Source: a virus
Taxonomy: Duplodnaviria > Caudoviricetes
Virus record (IMG/VR): IMGVR_UViG_3300005095_000141
Span: 1 to 60,538 of that record
Strand: one strand, 5' to 3'
Length of the DNA: 60,538 nt
Shown in pieces: positions 1 through 60,538 of the stretch (the stretch's first letter is position 1; each line of letters starts with the position of its first letter). A model generated the notes under the pieces. The model did not search any database, was not told where the DNA came from, and worked only from the letters and a program-made list of their open reading frames with translations. The position numbers and the translations under genes were made by a program.

Positions 1-91
1 TAAGAACTCGTATATTATACCGTTGTATGCCCGTCTTACCGGTGCTGGTAGCATACGTGTTGCTGGCTATGCTTTTCTTGATAGGTGGAGT
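1..91. repeat. Terminal direct repeat (assembly overlap), copy 1
   Basis: Bases 1-91 are identical to 60448-60538, and the E2 ORF reads through the junction, so the genome is circular or permuted. Confidence 0.97.
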
Positions 92-1078
92 AATGCGTTG
101 ATTGAGAGGTTGTTGAGGGAGTATGATGTTGTGGCGTTTGCGTATGGGTATGGTAATGGCCCGGTTGTATGTAGTGTTGCTTCGCAGGTATATGGCGGCG
201 GCACCGGTGTTCCGGCTGTGCTTGTACGGTCGCCTAGTACTGAGGCTTCGAATGTAGTGGATGCACTTACCGGTTTCCGCGGTGTATGCTATGTTGATGA
301 TGACACGTTCTTCTGCAGTGTTACCGATAGCGATGGCCGTATGCATGTGTTTGGCAGTACGAATTTCTTCGAGTACCGGTCTAGCCGTGCCGCCGGCGTT
401 ATGGTGGTGCTTAGAAGGTATTTCGGCAGTGACAGGGTTGAGGACGCCTATGTGATGGAGACCCTGCGCGACCTGTTCGGCGCTGTGCAGAACACTGTTG
501 TTGCTGAGACCCGTCTTGTAAGCTACCGTGTTAACGCTGTGTTCGACGTTGTGCCGGGGCGTGAAAAGCTGTATATGGGCAGGTACTGTACCGACTATAC
601 CGGTGATGAGTGCCTGTTTGGACTGGAGCGCCTTGTTGATTTTACAGGTAACCGTGTAGTGCTTAGATATGATAGTAGGCGTGGCATGGAGTACGTTGTG
701 TTGCCGGAGCCGTTCCGTGTTACCGGTAAGCTTGTAGTGTACGCTGTTGGCAGTTCCAGTAGATTGAGCGATGAGGGCATACCGCTTAGCCTATACGGAG
801 ACCTGTGGATAAGGTTTGACAACCAGTTGTTCAGGCACCCGAACAACAGTGACAGCGGCTCGGTGTGTCTGGGAGGCTATGAGTTGCCACGCTATACTGG
901 TAGGGGTGATACTGTGGATGAGCTTAGACGTGTGCTTGACACCGCCGTGTCTATACTGAGCATGCCGACCAGTAATGCGTTTAACAGCTCGTTTATTGAC
1001 TATGTGCGTGAATACTGTGATACGCATAGGTGCGAGGAAGGAGTGTTCAGGATGGATGAGGCGTGGGGCACCGGGTAG
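1..1078 (+). CDS. E2/UBC-like ubiquitin-conjugating protein, 3' part (gene starts at ATG 60269 and spans the junction; 418 aa in total)
   Basis: FRHPNNSDSGSVCLG matches the UBC signature HPN-x-G-x-[IV]-C-L (Cys codon 866-868), followed by the UBC-like helix VLDTAVSILSMPTSNAFN. Confidence 0.8.
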   Translation, partial: KNSYIIPLYARLTGAGSIRVAGYAFLDRWSNALIERLLREYDVVAFAYGYGNGPVVCSVASQVYGGGTGVPAVLVRSPSTEASNVVDALTGFRGVCYVDDDTFFCSVTDSDGRMHVFGSTNFFEYRSSRAAGVMVVLRRYFGSDRVEDAYVMETLRDLFGAVQNTVVAETRLVSYRVNAVFDVVPGREKLYMGRYCTDYTGDECLFGLERLVDFTGNRVVLRYDSRRGMEYVVLPEPFRVTGKLVVYAVGSSSRLSDEGIPLSLYGDLWIRFDNQLFRHPNNSDSGSVCLGGYELPRYTGRGDTVDELRRVLDTAVSILSMPTSNAFNSSFIDYVREYCDTHRCEEGVFRMDEAWGTG

Positions 1079-1099: not shown

Positions 1100-1126
1100 A
1101 ATATGGAACAGTAGGAGGTGTATGGG

Positions 1127-1333
1127 TTGCCTAAAGTAGTAATAGCCGGGAACGAGTACGAGGTAACAGGTACTGGCGAGGAGATAGTTAAGTTTATACT
1201 GGAGAAGGCGGCTGAGCTTGGCTGGGCAAGTGTACGCATATTTGCCGATGGGAAGGTTGTACCCGAGGGCGATGTACAGGCGCTTGAGCAGGCTTCGACG
1301 ATTGAGGTTGTTAAGGCGGACGTAGCGGCTTAG
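1127..1333 (+). CDS. Small ubiquitin-like (beta-grasp) protein with C-terminus DVAA
   Basis: About 68 aa with a beta-beta-alpha-beta-beta pattern (KVVIAG-NEYEV-helix-VRIFADGKVV-TIEVVK) and a free small-residue tail; directly follows E2; GGAGGTG RBS before TTG 1127 (track start 1118). Confidence 0.7.
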   Translation: MPKVVIAGNEYEVTGTGEEIVKFILEKAAELGWASVRIFADGKVVPEGDVQALEQASTIEVVKADVAA

Positions 1334-2045: not shown

Positions 2046-2870
2046 ATGGTTAGTCTGGCCGAGTTTGTACCGGAGCTGAAAAAGGTTCGTACAGGCAGTA
2101 CTGGTGGTGAAGAGAAGCTGGCCAAGGGAAGCGAGATATGCTTGTGGTTGCCCGGTAAGAAGGGCTGGTTTAAGACGAAGTATTGCTACAAGAGGAGTGT
2201 TGTGACGAGCTGGTTGCAGAAGGCGATACGTCGTGGTGACTGGATACGGGCGGCTTGGGCTGGTCTGATACTGGGGCAGAATGAGCCGTGGTATTTCTGG
2301 CACCGTGCACGTATTATTGCTGTTGAGGACTGCCTTGGTAGCCCGGAGCTGTTCGGCCTTGTGTATGGTATGATGCGTGAATTCGAGGCGCTTACCGGTT
2401 ACCGTATGTCGAAGGAGGATAAGAGGCAGTTGTTGAAGCTGGTTGACCTGGTATGTGCCAGTACCGGTGATGCCGACCTGTGCGATGGGTTGCACGAGTA
2501 TGTGAATAATTTGACCGGGTTTAAGGGGCCGGTGAAGAACTGGGATGCGCTGAGACTGATTGTTGCCGTTAGTGTGTTGCTGGCTAGGGCGAAACATGAC
2601 CGTAGTTCTGATGCGTTCCTTGACCTGATAACGGAGATTGTGAACCGTTTGAGCGATGGACGTGTGGATGAGGATAACGAGGCTGTTAGGTGGTTGGAGG
2701 AGCTGAGTAGGCCGCCTGAGTATGTGTTTGATATGCATGTGCTTGGTAAGGCGGCCCGTGTTAGCTGGGTTGAGAGTAGCCGTACCGTGAATAATACTGA
2801 GGAGTACGAGGAGTTCCGTGGGCTGTGGGAGCGGCTGTACCGTGCTGTTGGTGCGGCTGATGATTACTAG
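2046..2870 (+). CDS. Stand-alone MgsA/RarA C-terminal-like helical domain protein (no ATPase domain)
   Basis: SWLQKAIRRGD...A...FWHRARIIAVED and PEYVFDMH resemble the RarA/MgsA post-AAA domain; no Walker motifs. Confidence 0.6.
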   Translation: MVSLAEFVPELKKVRTGSTGGEEKLAKGSEICLWLPGKKGWFKTKYCYKRSVVTSWLQKAIRRGDWIRAAWAGLILGQNEPWYFWHRARIIAVEDCLGSPELFGLVYGMMREFEALTGYRMSKEDKRQLLKLVDLVCASTGDADLCDGLHEYVNNLTGFKGPVKNWDALRLIVAVSVLLARAKHDRSSDAFLDLITEIVNRLSDGRVDEDNEAVRWLEELSRPPEYVFDMHVLGKAARVSWVESSRTVNNTEEYEEFRGLWERLYRAVGAADDY

Positions 2871-3165
2871 GCTTGTTTTTCCCGTTGTGTGTATGTGTTT
2901 GTGGTTTGCCCCGGTACTGGGTGTTCTGGCCGGTGCTGGTGTTTTTTGTACGGTTTCTGTCTTTGTTATACTGTATATTGTACGGTATGGTATGGTATGG
3001 TTTCCGTATATTGTACGGTTGTTTCTGTTCTGTGCTGGTTTGCGATGTGTTTGTGATGGTGTTTTTTCGTGGGCCGGACGTTTTTTGTGGGGGTGTGTTT
3101 CTGGTGTTTGACTTAGGTGTTTTACCGGTTGGCTGTGTCTGTACTGGTTATTTGAGTGGTGTGGA
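2871..3165. repeat. T-rich non-coding region with (TATGG)3 and TATATTGTACGG direct repeats
   Basis: Repeats are visible at about 2945-3020; the track ORFs here are low-complexity. Confidence 0.6.
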
Positions 3166-3182
3166 TAAGAAACTTTTTAAAC
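3165..3182 (+). promoter_or_regulatory. Canonical archaeal BRE-TATA promoter
   Basis: ATAAGAAACTTTTTAAA upstream of an operon start. Confidence 0.6.
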
Positions 3183-3235
3183 CGTCACGAGAACATTTAC
3201 ACAACAAACAAAATGTAACGGGTAGGTGTATAGGA

Positions 3236-4732: not shown

Positions 4733-5161
4733 ATGGATAAGAAGGACAGGGAGCGTATTAGGCGTGTACTGGGTGTTGAACCCGGTGATAGGAGCCGTGT
4801 GTTCACGCCTAGGGCTAGACAGTATGTGCTGAACAGGTTTGGCCGTGGTACGCCGCTTAGCCTTGACCGTGAAGGGATATGTGACCTGTGCGGCCGTAAG
4901 GATGTTGTGTTCCCGAATACCGGGGAGATACCGGTGTGCCGTAGGCATCTGGGCAAGTTTGTACGTATTGGGCAGTTGAAGGCGCTTGGACGTGTGCAGG
5001 TGGTTACGAATTTCTATGGGCGGATACGGTGTTTTTTCTGTGGCAGGGCTGATCCGGTGATGTATTTTGTTAGGCCGAGGAAGCTGTGTATTAGGTGTAT
5101 GTGGTATGTGCTTGGCAGGCAGAGCAAGAGGCTTAGTATTGACGGTACCCGTATAACGTAG
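4733..5161 (+). CDS. Zinc-finger protein
   Basis: CDLC..CRRH and CFFC..CIRC pairs. Confidence 0.7.
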   Translation: MDKKDRERIRRVLGVEPGDRSRVFTPRARQYVLNRFGRGTPLSLDREGICDLCGRKDVVFPNTGEIPVCRRHLGKFVRIGQLKALGRVQVVTNFYGRIRCFFCGRADPVMYFVRPRKLCIRCMWYVLGRQSKRLSIDGTRIT

Positions 5162-5166
5162 CCGGG

Positions 5167-5544
5167 GTGGTGTGCTTGACTGATGCGTATAGTCTTGACA
5201 GGGATGATACTGAGCATTTGAAGAGTAAGGTTGCGGAGTACTGCGGTAAGCTGTGTAGTGGGCTGGTTGACCCGGCTGGTTTTGCCTTGTACCGGTGGTT
5301 TGCTGGTTTGCTTGGGACTAGGTGTGCCTGTATTGACGATGTTGTGCATGCCTATGTTGTTGTTTTGTGTGGCGATACCTATGTCTTTGTTGACAGTGAC
5401 TGTGATACCGATTTTGATGTTGCTGTGCGTTCTGCTATTGATAAGTGTGGGTGTGCGTATGAATGTTTTGCGGACGAGATGCGTTCTGCAGGCTTTATAC
5501 CGGTTCGTGTGCTGGATGTTGTGCGTGTAGATGCTGGGCGGTAG
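5167..5544 (+). CDS. Hypothetical Cys-rich protein
   Basis: ORF within an operon. Confidence 0.6.
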   Translation: MVCLTDAYSLDRDDTEHLKSKVAEYCGKLCSGLVDPAGFALYRWFAGLLGTRCACIDDVVHAYVVVLCGDTYVFVDSDCDTDFDVAVRSAIDKCGCAYECFADEMRSAGFIPVRVLDVVRVDAGR

Positions 5545-5577
5545 GGTGTCTGTGCTTTGATTCTAACGGTGAATAAA

Positions 5578-5949: not shown

Positions 5950-6263
5950 TGGCTGGTCTGTTCGTACCGGAGGATGTTGTGTTTGAAACTGTTGTTGTAG
6001 AGCACGGTGTTGCTGACGTGTACGGTGTTGTCCATACCGATAAGGGAGTGTTTAAGCTACATATTGAGGGGTGTGCGGACGACTTTGTGGCTGACAGGGA
6101 TTCGATAAAGGTGTTACTGGAGCTTGCGGCTGAGAGGGCTGAGACGGAGGTTGACGGCATATACAGGTACTGTGCCGGCAGGTTTGATGTGAAGATTACT
6201 ATGCTTGAAGGTGTTGATTGGCGTATAAGAATTGCTGAGTCTTGTAAGGGAGGTGGTAAGTGA
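5949..6263 (+). CDS. Hypothetical protein
   Basis: GGAGGTG RBS and TGATG coupling. Confidence 0.7.
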   Translation: MAGLFVPEDVVFETVVVEHGVADVYGVVHTDKGVFKLHIEGCADDFVADRDSIKVLLELAAERAETEVDGIYRYCAGRFDVKITMLEGVDWRIRIAESCKGGGK

Positions 6264-6463
6264 TGGGTAGGGCGTGTCCTGTGTGTGGCCGTGGAATGTT
6301 TAGCAGGAAGAAGCTGTTGGAGCATATTAAGAGGGAGCACCCGGCGTACTACCATAAGTGGATAGCGAATAGCCCGAGATACAGTGTCTGCCATTCACTA
6401 ATGATTGCGAAGAAGCGTGGCAGGGATGTTAAGATTCCGTCGCAGTGCAGGGGTGGTGCTTGA
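6263..6463 (+). CDS. C2H2 zinc-finger protein
   Basis: CPVCGRGMFSRKKLLEHIKREH. Confidence 0.8.
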   Translation: MGRACPVCGRGMFSRKKLLEHIKREHPAYYHKWIANSPRYSVCHSLMIAKKRGRDVKIPSQCRGGA

Positions 6464-9809: not shown

Positions 9810-9913
9810 GGATAAGGTTGTTGTTGTGGGGGAGGGTAAGAGGATTGTTTTTATACGTGGGTGTCCCGACGGTTCTTGTAGGCGGGACGGTAAGCGGGTG
9901 TTTTTTGTTTCTG

Positions 9914-10612
9914 ATGTTTTTGCTTGTTGAACTGTATGGTGGAGTGCCTGTTGTAGGTTCTGGTCTTGGGACGCTAGGGGTTGTAGTACCGTTTAGTGAT
10001 GGTTTCTACGGTGTTTCTGCCGGGCATGTATTGGCAGATGTTTTTACCGGTAGTTCGTATGACGTGTATTTGCCGGGAGATGGACGTGTAGGATATACCG
10101 TGTACTATACTGGTTTGAGACGGGAGAAGCGTTTTCTTGGAGTGTTTTACCGGTTCTTTGCATGGCTGTGCAATGTGTTTGGGAGTGGAGACCCTATAAG
10201 CCTTGGAAATACCGTTGATTACGGAGTGTTTAGGATTGACGGCAGGGTTGGTGTTAGGCCGTTCGTTGTTGGTGATGGAAGGCGGTTCTACGACCTTAGA
10301 GAGAGACGTATTGTAGGCATGGTGTTTGCAGGGGCTGTTGGTTTGTCTGGCAAGGTGTTTTTCTACGTGCCTTACCGGAGGTTTGCCGATATGTATGGCG
10401 GTGTGCTTAGTGGTTTTGAAGAATATGTGCCTGTATCTGGAGATGTTGTAAGGTTCTGCGGTGTTAGTGGTTGTCACGAGGGAGTTGTGCTTGATACTGA
10501 TGTATGGGTTAGGATACGTTTTTACGGCGGTGTGTCTGCATTGTTTAGCGGTGTAGGGGCTGTTAGCGGGGAGTTCGAGATAGGTGATAGTGGGGCGATT
10601 GTTTTTACCTAG
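9914..10612 (+). CDS. Trypsin-like serine protease (the true 5' end may be the small ORF 9796..9930 via a frameshift)
   Basis: GTLG...SAGHVL...DYGVF...GDSG catalytic triad motifs. Confidence 0.75.
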   Translation: MFLLVELYGGVPVVGSGLGTLGVVVPFSDGFYGVSAGHVLADVFTGSSYDVYLPGDGRVGYTVYYTGLRREKRFLGVFYRFFAWLCNVFGSGDPISLGNTVDYGVFRIDGRVGVRPFVVGDGRRFYDLRERRIVGMVFAGAVGLSGKVFFYVPYRRFADMYGGVLSGFEEYVPVSGDVVRFCGVSGCHEGVVLDTDVWVRIRFYGGVSALFSGVGAVSGEFEIGDSGAIVFT

Positions 10613-55878: not shown

Positions 55879-56598
55879 ATGCGTGTTAAGAAAATACGTG
55901 CTAGTTCGTCTAAATGGAGTACTGGGTATAAGCCTGTAACTGAATGCCCGTATATGAAGATTGGTAAGCTGATAGTGCTTGTTGATTTTTCGTTGTTCGA
56001 GAAGATAAGCAGGCTTGCAGACGAGATTGATACCGAGTTCCTGATGTATGCTAAGTACAAGAAGCTTGGTGAAAATGAAATATACGTTGTTGATGACGTG
56101 TTTGTACCGAAACAGAAAGCTAGTGCTACGTTTGTAGAGGTAGAGGACAAGATACCGGAGAAGTTTGCTACTGAGACTGTTGTTATACATAAGCACCCGC
56201 CGAATATAGAGTCGTTCAGCAGAACAGATTATGAGTACATTAATGCGAATAACGATGTTAGTCTGCTGTGGTGTGATGGAGAGTTTACTGATGCTACTGT
56301 AAGGCGCAAGCTACCGTGTGGTAAGACTGCTATTGCGAGTGCAGATACTGTTAAGATGTATGTTGTTCTGCCTACTGGTAAGAAGGTTGATAAGCTGATA
56401 GATGGTATTAAGAAATGGGTTGAGGAGGCGAAGAAGAAGATAAAGCAGGAATATGTGCATGTGGCGAATGGCAAGACTATTCTTGACTATAGCGATTATG
56501 GTGGGTGGAGGACTAGCCTGTACGACATACCGGATTATGATGATGAGATAGAGGAGCTGTATAATGGAGAGATTAGTAGGATGATGCGTAGAAGGTGA
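55879..56598 (+). CDS. JAB/MPN+ metallo-isopeptidase (Ubl deconjugase)
   Basis: TEF (catalytic Glu), VPKQ and VIHKHP....FS.TD (JAMM HxH-x7-S-x2-D). Confidence 0.85.
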   Translation: MRVKKIRASSSKWSTGYKPVTECPYMKIGKLIVLVDFSLFEKISRLADEIDTEFLMYAKYKKLGENEIYVVDDVFVPKQKASATFVEVEDKIPEKFATETVVIHKHPPNIESFSRTDYEYINANNDVSLLWCDGEFTDATVRRKLPCGKTAIASADTVKMYVVLPTGKKVDKLIDGIKKWVEEAKKKIKQEYVHVANGKTILDYSDYGGWRTSLYDIPDYDDEIEELYNGEISRMMRRR

Positions 56599-57260: not shown

Positions 57261-57646
57261 AATGGCGTGTTGACGATATGGATGATTTGGGAGACAAGGT
57301 CTGGGTGACCGTTATATTTGAGATAGATAAGGATGACTGGGTTGAGAGGTCTGTGTCTAGGTATAGTGAACTGCGTGATAAATGGACGAAGCTGTACCGT
57401 AAGGAGCTTGACATATATAGGAAGCTTGGTGGAAGAACTGGAGATGTTGTTGAGGTGTATAAGGACGGCACGGTTGTTATTGAGTATGGTGGTTTGCTGG
57501 GGAGGAAGCGTGTGAAGAAAGTGGTGTCTGCTGAGCTTAAACGCATTATTGATGAGAGAGCTGTGGTTGAGAAGGCTGTTAGCAATATTGTTGACAGGCT
57601 TGCTGAGAGGATTTTCGAGGAACTGTGCGGTGATAATGGTTATTAG
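57254..57646 (+). CDS. Hypothetical protein
   Basis: GGAGGTGA RBS. Confidence 0.65.
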   Translation: MVKWRVDDMDDLGDKVWVTVIFEIDKDDWVERSVSRYSELRDKWTKLYRKELDIYRKLGGRTGDVVEVYKDGTVVIEYGGLLGRKRVKKVVSAELKRIIDERAVVEKAVSNIVDRLAERIFEELCGDNGY

Positions 57647-57679
57647 TTGTTTGTTGTATAGTTTGTAGTGGTGGTAGGT

Positions 57680-58066
57680 ATGCCGTTTACTGGTAGGAGT
57701 GCGTTGAACCGTATTGTTGGTTTGCTTGAGGGTGTGCTTCGTGTTGCTAGTGATGTTGTAAGCGGTAGTTCTGGCAGTGTTTCTACTGGTGATGCTGAGG
57801 CTGTTGTTGCTAGTGTTGATTTGTCTGGCTGTGTGCGTGGCGTTGTGTTGGTTGCTAATACTGGTGGTAATGGTGTGGATGTTGTTGTGTCTGCTGTTGT
57901 TCCCGGCGGTAGTGTTTCGTACCAGTTGTTTAGCGGTAGTGTTGCGGCTGGTGCTGTACAGCGTGTGGATGTTGATTTTCCCTGTAAGGTCAGTGTGTTT
58001 GCTAAGAATAGTACGAGTGGTGCGGGCAGTACTGTTGTTGTTGACTGGGTTGGCTGGAAAGCCTAG
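57680..58066 (+). CDS. Small beta-rich protein (possibly structural)
   Basis: ATG after GGTGG; G/V/S-rich. Confidence 0.5.
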   Translation: MPFTGRSALNRIVGLLEGVLRVASDVVSGSSGSVSTGDAEAVVASVDLSGCVRGVVLVANTGGNGVDVVVSAVVPGGSVSYQLFSGSVAAGAVQRVDVDFPCKVSVFAKNSTSGAGSTVVVDWVGWKA

Positions 58067-58160
58067 CACTGTTTTTTAGCCTGTACTGAACAATGTGTGC
58101 CGGGCAATGTACAGGCGCCGGACACAGACCACCATATAGAATACAGGAGAGGAGAACACA

Positions 58161-58511
58161 ATGCCCAGACACATACACACAATAATAACAGAGAAACTAT
58201 ACTGGGTAATAGACAGTATTAGGGGCCGGTACGGTGTTAGTAGTGGTGCTTTGCTAGAGTTTGTTTTCTGGGCTTGCTGGGAGGATAGTGGTTGTAGGCG
58301 GCGTGTTTTGGACTGGCTTGCTGGCCGTGGTGTTCGTACTGGTAGTACTGGTGGTGCTGGCGATACTGGTTCTGGTTCGGCTGGTTCTGCTGGTGGTGTG
58401 GATAGTACCGGTAATGCTGGTGGTGGTGGTGCTTCGTCTTTTGCTGAGTGGTTGGTGCGTGGGTGGGGTGACCCGTTGAACCAGTTGTTGTTTGAGCTTG
58501 GCGGTGACTAG
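58161..58511 (+). CDS. Putative RHH-like regulator
   Basis: MPRHIHTIITEKLYWVIDSIRGRYGVSSGALLE has a beta-alpha-alpha pattern; GGAGAGGAG RBS. Confidence 0.5.
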   Translation: MPRHIHTIITEKLYWVIDSIRGRYGVSSGALLEFVFWACWEDSGCRRRVLDWLAGRGVRTGSTGGAGDTGSGSAGSAGGVDSTGNAGGGGASSFAEWLVRGWGDPLNQLLFELGGD

Positions 58512-58523
58512 GCTGGTTTGTGC

Positions 58524-58542
58524 TGTGCTTTGTTTTTACTGG
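58524..58542 (+). promoter_or_regulatory. 19-bp viral motif copy (upstream of E1)
   Basis: TGTGCTTTG-TTTTT-ACTGG. Confidence 0.75.
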
Positions 58543-58570
58543 TATTTACTGGGTTTGTGGGTGGTGTGTT

Positions 58571-59416
58571 GTGTCTGGTCGGGATTTGCTGTGGTTTCTT
58601 AGGCGGGCGGCGGCTGGAGGGTCTGTTTCTGGCAGTACTGGTTCTGTGGCTGGTGATTCTAGGTCTGCTGGTGCAGACGATGCTGGCGTTGCTGTTAATA
58701 CTGGTACTGGTGGTTCTGGTGCTGGGTTTGTGTTTCCTGGTGTGCGTGCTGTTGTGTTTGGGTTGGGTGGTGTTGGTTCGTGGCTTGTGTTTCTTGCTGG
58801 TGGTTACCGGTTGTTTGGTGGTTTTGTATTGGTTGATGGTGATGTGTGGGAGCCGGTGAATAGTAATAGGTTGTGGTTGTACCCGTTTGGGGGGTTGTTG
58901 GGCCGGTGTGTTGCTGGTGGCCGGTGTTTTAAGGCTGGTTTGGCTGGTGGGTGGCTTGTGCGGCGTGCTGGCTATACTGGTGGCCGGGTAAGGGTTGTTC
59001 CCCGGTATGTGCGTGGGGTGGATGATGTGCGTGCTGTTTTGTCCCGTTACTGTACCGGTACCGGCGGTGACGGTGCTGGTTATCGTTACCCGTGTGTTGT
59101 GTTTGACTGTGTTGATTCGCCGCGTGTGTCTGCTGATGTTCGGTATGCTGGTGTTGGTGCTGGGTTGCCTGTTGTTAGTCTTCATTTTGACGGTGGTAGT
59201 GTTACTGGTGAGGTGTTTTTGCCGGGGTCTGGGGCTGGTGTTTTTAGTGTTGGTGGTGCTCGTGGTGGGTATGTGGCTGGTAGTGTTGCGGGGTCTAGTG
59301 TGTTGGCGGCTTGGCTTGGCGTGGTGCTTGCTTACCGTGTTCTTACTGGGGCTGTTGGTGGCTATGTGTTGGTTGGTGGTGATACTGGGTCTGGGCTTCG
59401 TGTTTTTGGCTTGTAG
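58571..59416 (+). CDS. E1/ThiF-family ubiquitin-like activating enzyme
   Basis: VFGLGGVGS (GxGxxG), VDGDVWEPVNSNR (D-x-D..NxNR), the conserved K and FDCVD. Confidence 0.85.
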   Translation: MSGRDLLWFLRRAAAGGSVSGSTGSVAGDSRSAGADDAGVAVNTGTGGSGAGFVFPGVRAVVFGLGGVGSWLVFLAGGYRLFGGFVLVDGDVWEPVNSNRLWLYPFGGLLGRCVAGGRCFKAGLAGGWLVRRAGYTGGRVRVVPRYVRGVDDVRAVLSRYCTGTGGDGAGYRYPCVVFDCVDSPRVSADVRYAGVGAGLPVVSLHFDGGSVTGEVFLPGSGAGVFSVGGARGGYVAGSVAGSSVLAAWLGVVLAYRVLTGAVGGYVLVGGDTGSGLRVFGL

Positions 59417-59417
59417 T

Positions 59418-59436
59418 TGTGCTTTGTTTTTACCGG
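59418..59436 (+). promoter_or_regulatory. 19-bp viral motif copy (upstream of the unknown ORF-E2 pair)
   Basis: TGTGCTTTG-TTTTT-ACCGG. Confidence 0.75.
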
Positions 59437-59437
59437 T

Positions 59438-59501
59438 ATCTGTACTGTATCTGTAACTGTACTGTATTGTATCTGTATTGGTATGGTATGTATTGGTATG
59501 T
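59438..59501. repeat. Short (TGTAY)/(TATGG)-type repeats
   Basis: tgtactgtatctgtaactgtactgtattgtatctgtattggtatggtatg; similar to 2970-3020. Confidence 0.55.
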
Positions 59502-60262
59502 GTTTGGGGGTGTTGGTTGGGTTGTTTGTGCGGAGTGTGGATGTTGGTGGTGTTAGGCGGGCTGGTTCTGGGCGTGTTCCTGGTCGTTACCGGGTTGGTG
59601 ATTGGGGTGTTGAGTGGTTGTTTGTTCTTGATGGTGCTGGTGGGTTCGGTGTTGTTGCCGGGTTTTTGCTTGGTTTGGGGGGTTCTGGTGTTGTTGTTGT
59701 TGGTAGTGGTGGTGTGCCGGGTGTTGTTGCGCCTTGTTATGGTGTGCCGGGGGGTGCTGGGCTTGGTGGTTGGCCGTCTTGTTTTGCTGGTTTGGGCGGT
59801 GTTGTTTCTTACCGGGTTGTTGCTGAGTGGTTGTCTTCCGGTGTTGTGTTTCAGGGTGTTGGGGATGTGTTTGTTGTTGATGTTGGGCTTGGGTTGCCGG
59901 TTTCTTCTTGGCTTTACCGGGGCGGTGTGGGGCTTGTCTTTACCGGTGTTGATGGGGGTGTGTATGTGTTTGTTGCTAGGAGGCTGTATCTTTCTGATTT
60001 GCGCAGGATAGGCCGTGTGTCTGGCGGTGGTGATGGATGGTTTGTGCGTGGGGAGGAGTGCGGTGCGCTGTGCTCTGGTTTAAACGTACCCGGTGCCCTT
60101 ACCGGTGATGAGGGCTTGTTCGGGGGGTATGGCTTGGCTGGATGGGTTAGCAATGTGTTGCTGGAGGGTATTGTTACTGTGCTGAGGCGTACTAGTGATA
60201 GGGCGGTGATGTACCGGCTTGACACTGGTTCTGGCGGTGTTGAGAGACGTGTTTGGAGGTGA
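59498..60262 (+). CDS. Unknown lysine-free protein between E1 and E2
   Basis: Open frame 59417..60262 whose stop overlaps the E2 RBS; start uncertain. Confidence 0.55.
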   Translation: MCLGVLVGLFVRSVDVGGVRRAGSGRVPGRYRVGDWGVEWLFVLDGAGGFGVVAGFLLGLGGSGVVVVGSGGVPGVVAPCYGVPGGAGLGGWPSCFAGLGGVVSYRVVAEWLSSGVVFQGVGDVFVVDVGLGLPVSSWLYRGGVGLVFTGVDGGVYVFVARRLYLSDLRRIGRVSGGGDGWFVRGEECGALCSGLNVPGALTGDEGLFGGYGLAGWVSNVLLEGIVTVLRRTSDRAVMYRLDTGSGGVERRVWR

Positions 60263-60268
60263 CCGTGT

Positions 60269-60538
60269 ATGAGCTGGAGTGTTGAGAGCTGGTATGCATG
60301 GTTTTCCCGCCGGGATACCGGTGCTGGGCGTGGTACTGGTGGTGATGCGGGGTCTGGGCCTGTTAGGACGCTGAGCTTTAGGCGTGCTGGTGCGGACGTT
60401 GTGTTTGACCTGTACGGTGATGTTAACGACAGGTTTGTGCGTGCTGTTAAGAACTCGTATATTATACCGTTGTATGCCCGTCTTACCGGTGCTGGTAGCA
60501 TACGTGTTGCTGGCTATGCTTTTCTTGATAGGTGGAGT
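60269..60538 (+). CDS. E2/UBC-like protein, 5' part (continues at base 92)
   Basis: ATG 60269 follows RBS GGAGGTGA; the frame MSWSVESWYAWFSRR...RAVKNSYIIPLYARLT is open and continuous with ORF 23..1078. Confidence 0.85.
   Translation, partial: MSWSVESWYAWFSRRDTGAGRGTGGDAGSGPVRTLSFRRAGADVVFDLYGDVNDRFVRAVKNSYIIPLYARLTGAGSIRVAGYAFLDRWS
60448..60538. repeat. Terminal direct repeat (assembly overlap), copy 2
   Basis: Identical to bases 1-91. Confidence 0.97.

Follow-up and report, generated by a model that had tools for sequence, protein, structure and literature searches.

Three consecutive open reading frames (ORFs) of a tailed virus (Duplodnaviria; Caudoviricetes), analysed over a window that comprises all 60,538 nucleotides of IMG/VR record IMGVR_UViG_3300005095_000141, are almost devoid of lysine. 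All three lie on the plus strand in a single reading frame, and they code for an E1-like (ThiF-like) protein, a protein of no recognised family that is referred to here as the middle protein, and a protein that resembles the E2 enzymes of ubiquitin-like (Ubl) conjugation systems. The lysine scarcity of these ORFs appears to have two separate causes. In the E1-like and middle ORFs it is very probably a by-product of an adenine (A)-poor island in the DNA, the composition of which already predicts about one Lys in each, whereas in the E2-like ORF it probably reflects a real, Lys-specific replacement of Lys by Arg at the level of the protein. Taken as a whole, this two-cause account has an about even chance of being correct.

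The E1-like ORF (58520..59416) has a single Lys in 298 amino acids (codon 58931-58933), and still one in the 281-residue database form that begins at GTG 58571. None is present in the 281 amino acids of the middle ORF (59417..60262; the database form has 259 residues, from ATG 59483), and three (K61, K249 and K303; codons 2-4, 566-568 and 728-730) are present in the 418 amino acids of the E2-like ORF. The last of these genes runs across the ends of the record. The final 91 bases of the window are identical to the initial 91, which leaves 60,447 unique bp of a circular or terminally redundant genome (class in IMG/VR: direct terminal repeats, 100% complete), and the E2-like ORF consists of 60269..60447 joined to 1..1078. 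Its first part, coding for residues 1-90, can be read at 60269..60538 and continues at base 1 via the 91-bp terminal overlap, with residues 61-418 encoded by 2..1075.

The longest Lys-free runs in the three proteins (281 amino acids in the middle, 187 in the E2-like and 160 in the E1-like protein) are the top three in a set of 88 ORFs, the next longest being 111; this gene set is a crude call that consists of the non-overlapping longest plus-strand ORFs of at least 60 amino acids. All three proteins are lysine deserts in the operational sense given in the available text of Szulc et al. 2023, that is, they have a Lys-free stretch of at least 150 amino acids or of at least 50% of the protein (PMC10665810). 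The original prediction, made from the sequence of this DNA, had counted one, zero and three Lys, which a recount reproduced exactly, and had contrasted them with a Ubl candidate with 5 Lys and a Lys-rich JAB candidate. This contrast was also borne out (5 Lys in 71 and 28 Lys in 239 amino acids, or 11.7%, respectively), as was the remark that the E2-like protein retains about a dozen Asn and many Glu (14 and 20 counted).

Lysine content of genes in an A-poor island

The E1-like and middle ORFs lie in an A-poor, G+T-rich island (58201..60500, plus strand), within which A accounts for 3-9% of each 300-nt window and for ~7.6% of the region 58201-60000, with G and T at ~40% each. The left edge of the island is sharp, near 58200; rightward, A climbs gradually over the E2-like gene and stands at 0.24-0.26 by ~900. 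At four-fold degenerate sites, A makes up a fraction of only 0.02 (E1-like ORF) or 0.04 (middle ORF), with T at 0.61-0.63 in both, compared with an A fraction of 0.10 in the 22 ORFs of the arm at 1.1-9.8 kb and 0.18-0.23 in the rest of the genome. Because synonymous sites have lost A as well, what the bias acts on is the nucleic acid (DNA or RNA) and not the protein. Plain A-to-G pressure does not account for the whole of it, because the shift at synonymous sites runs chiefly towards T. No RNA family or tRNA that would account for the island was found. Over the genome as a whole, G exceeds C throughout, four-fold-site A is ~0.1 in the non-structural arms and 0.18-0.23 in the blocks at 10.8-35 kb and 36-57 kb, and smaller A-poor patches are found at 57601-58100, 2701-3200 and 5251-5550.

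Observed lysine counts were compared with two null models. Under a position-specific null, in which codons are drawn according to the base frequencies that each gene shows at its first, second and third codon positions, 0.90 Lys is expected in the E1-like ORF (1 seen) and 1.18 in the middle ORF (0 seen), giving Poisson P=0.77 and 0.31, respectively. Glu, Ile, Met, Gln and Asn have collapsed alongside Lys in the island ORFs. In the E1-like ORF only 2 Glu and 1 Ile are left, and Gln and internal Met are missing altogether; compared with the rest of the genome, its K:E ratio is not shifted (p=1.0), and its I:V and E:G ratios are (p=2e-9 and p=2e-15). The middle ORF is rather more Lys-poor than Glu-poor by the same comparison (K:E 0:7, p=0.016). 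The second model was an overdispersed beta-binomial regression, fitted without the three focal ORFs, that relates K/(K+R) to how much A the non-K/R codons contain. It had to be extrapolated past its data range for these genes and gave P=0.06 for the E1-like and P=0.018 for the middle ORF. With only about one Lys expected, the slight extra deficit of the middle ORF carries little weight. As the composition of the island predicts ~1 Lys per gene, the E1-like and middle deserts are uninformative about self-modification. The original prediction had seen in them selection against auto-conjugation, and had named full prediction of the Lys loss by local A-depletion as the result that would speak against this. 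Such a result was obtained for the E1-like and middle ORFs, in which composition suffices, and that part of the claim falls away; it was not obtained for the E2-like ORF.

That all three proteins were selected as deserts against auto-conjugation, with the middle ORF acting as a non-canonical E3 or adaptor, is thus highly improbable. The shared formal definition, the adjacency of the three ORFs in one frame, the overlap of the middle-ORF stop with a site before the E2-like gene that resembles a ribosome-binding site, and the low regression and K:E values of the middle ORF all fit such a reading, but composition leaves almost no Lys to be explained in two of the three genes, and the parallel loss of A at synonymous sites is something that protein-level selection cannot bring about. 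The middle protein (23% Gly, 19% Val) matched no family in Pfam, PHROGs, PADLOC or NCBIfam and has no recognisable E3 or adaptor domain, and a protein database search found no homologue beyond the protein itself. Its sole link to the E2-like gene is positional, namely the Shine-Dalgarno-like sequence GGAGGTGA (60255..60262, plus strand, identified by eye), which overlaps the TGA of the middle ORF and ends 6 nt 5' of the E2 ATG. The role proposed for the Lys-free ORF as an E3 or adaptor is therefore left without support from family, homologue, motif or fold. The E1-like and middle ORFs have a 22-nt start and a GxGGxG string in common, and for this reason paralogy between them was considered, but it found no support: without the shared start the similarity had z=1.2 and an equal score was reached in 54 of 500 shuffles. 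BLASTP of the E1-like against the middle protein gave E=0.45.

Stop codons require A, and at 7.6% A they are rare. The island ORFs might on this ground be decaying pseudogenes that have merely stayed open, for which we see little likelihood. Other plus-strand frames of the island are open for 113-177 amino acids and minus-strand frames for 195-225, the chance of an open frame under position-specific composition is not extreme (0.055 for the E1-like and 0.030 for the middle ORF), and the two proteins are 22-23% Gly. On the other hand, the chance of an open frame falls to 0.0004-0.0006 under plain island composition, the ThiF nucleotide-binding motif is retained in the E1-like ORF, and A favours the first two codon positions over the third by ~3- to 8-fold (counts at positions 1, 2 and 3: E1-like ORF 26, 33 and 4, p=2e-5; middle ORF 31, 30 and 10, p=0.003). 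The fraction of G at the first codon position is also coding-like in both ORFs (0.52-0.54, matching the rest of the genome). Given that what A is left is concentrated at the first two codon positions, both frames look like genes that are under some amino-acid constraint.

Lysine depletion of the E2-like ORF

The base composition of four-fold sites in the E2-like ORF (A 0.08, C 0.20, G 0.31, T 0.42) is similar to that of the 22-ORF arm that follows it (0.10, 0.13, 0.33 and 0.43), with which its synonymous codon usage has a correlation of 0.92. Lys makes up 0.7% of the E2-like protein and 6.0% of the proteins of the arm. Under the position-specific null, 8.87 Lys are expected and 3 are seen, a ratio of 0.34 that is the lowest among the 76 ORFs for which 3 or more are expected (their median is 1.16). 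The regression null predicts 19.5 Lys (P=1.1e-4), and when it was fitted with all ORFs the E2-like ORF ranked first of the 88. Comparable A content in non-K/R codons is found in 24 ORFs of at least 100 codons; 23 of these carry 3.6-9.5% Lys and the remaining one, the E2-like ORF, 0.72%.

The depletion is specific with respect to both the amino acid and the gene. K:R stands at 3:42 in the E2-like ORF versus 170:228 in the 22 neighbouring ORFs (p=4.7e-7), K:N at 3:14 versus 170:60 (p=5e-6), and K:E is shifted with p=0.004. The same comparison shows no shift in N:D (p=0.36), T:A (p=0.08) or D:G (p=0.80) and a mild one in E:G (p=0.02). Charge has been conserved (K+R = 45 of 418 residues). In four successive segments of the gene K:R is 0:8, 1:6, 1:14 and 1:14, and thus even, though A climbs from 0.13 to 0.22 along it, and the depletion does not extend past the end of the gene, as the two ORFs that follow have K:R of 5:1 and 8:2. 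These comparisons make it probable that the loss of Lys in favour of Arg is real, confined to Lys and exerted on the protein. The statement in the original prediction that A-poverty alone does not explain the E2-like ORF is upheld, with 3 Lys found against ~9-19 expected according to the null and with N:D, T:A and D:G normal.

The strength of the depletion depends on the null chosen, and a number of results count against a protein-level cause. The simple position-specific null gives a Poisson P of only 0.023, uncorrected for 88 ORFs, and the comparison of AAR with AAY codons within the ORF gives P=0.076. I:V is also shifted (8:51; p=0.04 versus the neighbours and 4e-5 versus the rest of the genome). 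In addition, an ORF outside the Ubl module (9818..10612) is likewise Lys-poor, with 2 Lys in 264 amino acids and K/(K+R) of 0.09. All three deserts, that of the E2-like protein included, could then result from nucleotide bias together with weak constraint in a fast-evolving orphan, in which Lys-to-Arg and Ile-to-Val changes would come first, and we regard this as a minority possibility that has to be taken seriously. The E2-like gene sits on the shoulder of the island, over which A is still recovering, and the protein is an orphan without detectable relatives, as would be consistent with fast evolution. Both of the ratios K:R and I:V, which represent the most conservative A-to-G-type exchanges, are shifted, and N:D, T:A and D:G are not; because of this, mutation bias could yield much of the pattern. 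Composition is also named as the main confounder of lysine deserts in the portions of the review literature that were available (PMC13696103). However, neighbours whose four-fold-site A is no higher (0.03-0.14) retain 3.2-7.7% Lys, and relative to these neighbours K:R has moved ~six-fold and I:V only ~two-fold. The step in K:R follows the boundary of the gene and not the gradient in composition, and the E2-like ORF remains the top outlier of the 88 ORFs in a regression that allows for overdispersion.

Recent import of the E2-like gene from a Lys-poor donor was also considered. It was rejected on the basis of the codon usage shared with the neighbours (0.92) and of Ala, Asn, Phe and Tyr contents that are not like those of a GC-rich donor. 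A further alternative, which appears unlikely, is that Lys was selected against in the E2-like protein for a different cause, such as lysine-directed modification by the host, a lysine-specific protease, or a benefit of Arg for stability or nucleic-acid binding. A Lys-specific depletion with conserved charge would be expected equally in these cases, and the Lys-poor ORF 9818..10612 has, by eye, a GDSG motif resembling that of serine proteases, but the JAB and Ubl candidates are Lys-rich, which makes a general host-directed pressure unlikely. The ORF 9818..10612 is itself Gly/Val-rich, bears an AGHV motif (also by eye) besides GDSG, and had no family match; A is equally frequent over its codon positions (0.17, 0.17 and 0.16), unlike in the island genes.

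If the depletion is indeed exerted on the protein, the cause that we find most likely lies in the chemistry of conjugation. In a cascade without an E3, the charged E2 would pass the Ubl directly to lysine amino groups, and the nearest acceptors would be the surface lysines of the E2 itself. Replacing these by Arg would keep the charge and remove the acceptor. We infer that the E2-like protein may be a working Cys-type E2 that attaches the small protein encoded next to it to lysines with no need of an E3; activity of the system on lysines, as put forward in the original prediction, is likewise inference. Avoidance of self-conjugation as the reason for its Lys loss is put forward tentatively, as a minority possibility about as likely as nucleotide bias with weak constraint, with chance and other causes at the level of the protein making up the remainder. 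The full scenario, in which a tailed virus of a prokaryote has its own minimal and highly diverged Ubl-E1-E2-JAB cascade and an E3-less, Cys-type E2 that has been purged of lysine against self-tagging, is rather doubtful.

Identity of the conjugation genes and their surroundings

The E2-like ORF is likely to code for a conjugating enzyme of the E2 fold. It contains a putative catalytic loop, HPNNSDSGSVCLG (residues 339-351; 836..874, plus strand), which has the form HPN-x7-C-L-G with His339 and the candidate catalytic Cys349, and which we take to be the ubiquitin-conjugating (UBC) signature, (H)PN-x-G-x-[VI]-C. The loop is found once on the plus strand; in block shuffles of that strand HPNx7C arose in 15 of 500 and HPNx7CL in 0 of 500. 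A language-model feature search with the C-terminal 169 amino acids placed Prok-E2_D in 28 of the 30 nearest named clusters (score 0.93, 195 of 256 features shared), and a model from the ESM Atlas had a template modelling (TM) score of 0.42 to a UQ_con cluster; these resemblances to E2 families are leads only. An hhalign comparison of 16 Prok-E2_D domains with the C-terminal part of the viral protein gave P=0.0021 and a probability of 13%, and paired the loop with the invariant N-x4-G-x-V-C-x-G of that family.

The formal searches argue in the opposite direction, as no family-model cut-off was passed in any of the tests for E2 families. The models PF00179 (UQ_con) and PF14460 (Prok-E2_D) had no match in the genome at E up to 10 and none by hmmscan of the C-terminal part, and there was no sequence match to the E2-like protein in the PDB. 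AlphaFold2 run without an alignment gave predictions of the E2-like protein with predicted local distance difference test (pLDDT) values of 36 and 48, which are unusable, and Foldseek returned no hit at E <=0.001. Apart from the protein itself, homologues of the E2-like protein were absent from viral contigs, from a word-indexed search of 5.8 billion proteins and from an exhaustive phmmer search against 1.84 billion representatives. A search of viral contigs by terminase found no sister viruses, and tblastn of the E2 C-terminal part against phages yielded only chance capsid matches (E >=2).

The lysine content of Prok-E2_D proteins offers no parallel to the viral desert either. Genomes of three phyla were sampled, 401 from each, and the family occurred in 5 from Pseudomonadota, 9 from Bacteroidota and 1 from Bacillota, at 17 places in all, of which 16 were aligned; none was found in E. 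coli K-12. In the 16 domains, Lys ranges over 3.7-9.8% (median 7.9%) and K/(K+R) over 0.35-0.88 (median 0.67), a level at or above that of the pooled flanking ORFs in 14 of the 16 loci; these flanks were crude stop-to-stop ORFs and are least reliable in five GC-rich loci. To judge from these sequences, lysine avoidance is not a general property of E2s of the Prok-E2_D type, although their relationship to the viral protein is too remote to decide the matter. At the level of the family this speaks against the original prediction, which had named a normal Lys content of homologues as a second result that would refute it. As a separate observation, two of the bacterial loci (L126 and L129) show a conserved arrangement of three genes, with a ~400-amino-acid protein (alpha-hel2 in L126, of no family in L129) followed by Prok-E2_D and then by a ThiF-type E1 of ~270 amino acids.

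The identity of the E1-like ORF is weak, being drawn from a motif and from a profile match below threshold. The Pfam family ThiF (PF00899) matched residues 76-122 with E=3.7e-4 and 20.2 bits, below the cut-off of 28.1 bits. When the genome was searched with the same family, the per-genome E-value was 3.7e-5 (18.2 bits), with a second, collinear fragment at 59096-59179 (E=8, 0.8 bit); the match is thus limited to profile positions 22-67 and this 0.8-bit fragment, and the family cut-off was not passed. A Gly-rich loop followed by D-x-D and N-x-x-R is present, FGLGGVGS...LVDGDVWEPVNSNR, and aligns to the ThiF/PaaA motif; in the PDB the protein was matched to the Rossmann motif of PaaA with E=0.99. 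By hhalign against 13 bacterial ThiF proteins the E1-like ORF scored P=0.072, in an alignment that ends before the invariant Lys column. Pairwise alignments to the same 13 proteins covered this column in 0 of 13 at default gap costs, and laxer costs led to scattered placements, 2 of 13 on the viral Lys. The original prediction had taken this single Lys for the conserved nucleotide-binding (ATP-binding) residue, which the alignments did not confirm. A protein database search found no homologue of the E1-like protein beyond itself. Across Pfam, PHROGs, PADLOC and NCBIfam, the sub-threshold ThiF match was the only one for the ORFs of the locus.

The Ubl candidate (1118..1333, plus strand, 71 amino acids) was identified by eye only and had no match to ThiS, ubiquitin or any other family model. 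Its C-terminus reads ...KADVAA and not Gly-Gly. The JAB/JAMM candidate (55879..56598, plus strand, 239 amino acids) was recognised by an HxHx7SxxD motif, of which the plus strand has a single instance and which 27 of 500 shuffles also contained; the candidate had no match to JAB or Prok-JAB hidden Markov models.

Within the locus, a TAG (59414-59416) separates the E1-like from the middle ORF, and a TGA (60260-60262) and two further codons separate the middle from the E2-like ORF. Stop-codon reassignment, or read-through that would join the three ORFs, was considered, and all three stop codons are in use genome-wide (35 TGA, 33 TAG and 20 TAA over the 88 ORFs). The 22-nt sequence TGTGCTTTGTTTTTACYGGTAT is present at the 5' end of the E1-like ORF (58524..58545, plus strand) and again at the 5' end of the middle ORF (59418..59439, plus strand), where it encodes LCFVFTGI at the start of both. 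These are its only 2 matches in the window, and 2 matches were reached in 0 of 100 shuffles. The database forms of the two proteins begin at 58571 and 59483, 3' of the repeat, and because each start lies downstream of the copy in its own ORF, the repeat may be a control element, such as a promoter, and not part of the coding sequence.

The genome also codes for a large terminase, a portal, a prohead protease, a family B DNA polymerase and two glycosyltransferases. Two small Cys-rich ORFs, at 4733-5161 and 6260-6463, have paired CxxC or CxxC...HxxxxH and may, from these motifs, be zinc fingers; should the genome encode a RING-like E3, they would be the foremost candidates. The peptide TGSTG or GSTG, often after R or K, recurs in five ORFs (starts 2037, 9219, 36337, 58161 and 58520), usually in linkers rich in Gly, Ser and Thr, and the DNA beneath it (ACTGGTAGTACTGG-like) also forms a repeat family at 58.3-58.7 kb.

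Comparison with known systems

Lysine deserts, and composition as their confounder, are established topics, and the E1-like and middle ORFs are ordinary compositional effects. In the sections of text available, the loss of Lys and gain of Arg through composition is described for GC-rich Actinobacteria and for haloarchaea (PMC13696103). The two island ORFs are alike in that AAR codons fall and Arg rises, from the same cause. They differ in that the viral bias is local (2.3 kb), strand-specific and directed towards G+T instead of G+C, with third positions that are 61-63% T. A caution follows for other genomes: where strand bias is strong over a short region, the abundance of any one amino acid has to be set against a local null before it is given a functional reading. 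Selected versus compositional deserts are the main open problem of this field, and on the two-cause account both kinds would stand side by side in this operon.

The deserts of the eukaryotic ubiquitin-proteasome system, for which the available parts of the literature name San1, Slx5, RAD23A, UBQLN1 and BAG6 (PMC10169902, PMC10665810, PMC13696103), resemble the E2-like protein in their long Lys-free stretches, in the retention of Arg and in belonging to proteins that work beside activated ubiquitin; escape from self-modification has been proposed for them, and lysine deserts are used to recognise, from sequence, proteins that have to evade the ubiquitin machinery they belong to. As described there, most of the eukaryotic examples occur in E3s, receptors and shuttle factors; they are often disordered, and they are conserved among orthologues, whereas the viral protein is an E2-like orphan of a prokaryotic virus, in a genome of strong nucleotide bias, for which no orthologues were found. 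In the literature on lysine deserts and on Bil/Cap2, a viral or prokaryotic E2 was absent from the titles and abstracts among the matches listed. If the selective reading of the E2-like protein is true, it would be the first case of a lysine desert to be recognised in a viral conjugating enzyme of prokaryotic type, and the desert principle would widen from eukaryotic E3s and shuttle factors to the E2 of a virus-encoded, prokaryotic-type cascade.

Among prokaryotic systems, Prok-E2_D is the family nearest to the viral E2-like protein by language-model features and by hhalign. In bacterial operons of Prok-E2_D and ThiF, an E2-like gene with N-x4-G-x-V-C-x-G adjoins a small ThiF-type E1, an arrangement that recalls the E1-like neighbour of the viral gene. 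The bacterial proteins differ in being ~240 amino acids long and Lys-rich, and in belonging to a Pfam model without a viral match; the viral protein adds an N-terminal region of ~250 amino acids and an HPN triad.

A parallel for the Lys content is the E2-like protein BubB of Citrobacter, for which the excerpted text reports that mutation of 'its only lysine residue (K358)' abolishes an ATP-dependent Ubl-E2 product in vitro (PMC11601596). Scarcity of Lys is not discussed as a trait in the available part of that paper. BubB differs in having a catalytic Ser where the viral protein has the HPN...Cys loop, and the likeness is one of description only. Going by the same excerpt, BubB is like the viral protein an E2-like member of an E3-less prokaryotic cascade, has a single Lys, and indicates that self-conjugation of such E2s occurs. 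This self-modification at a single Lys makes the avoidance of self-conjugation plausible for the viral E2. Should that prove true, the viral E2 and the single-Lys E2 of Bub together would point to self-conjugation as a general cost of E3-less cascades.

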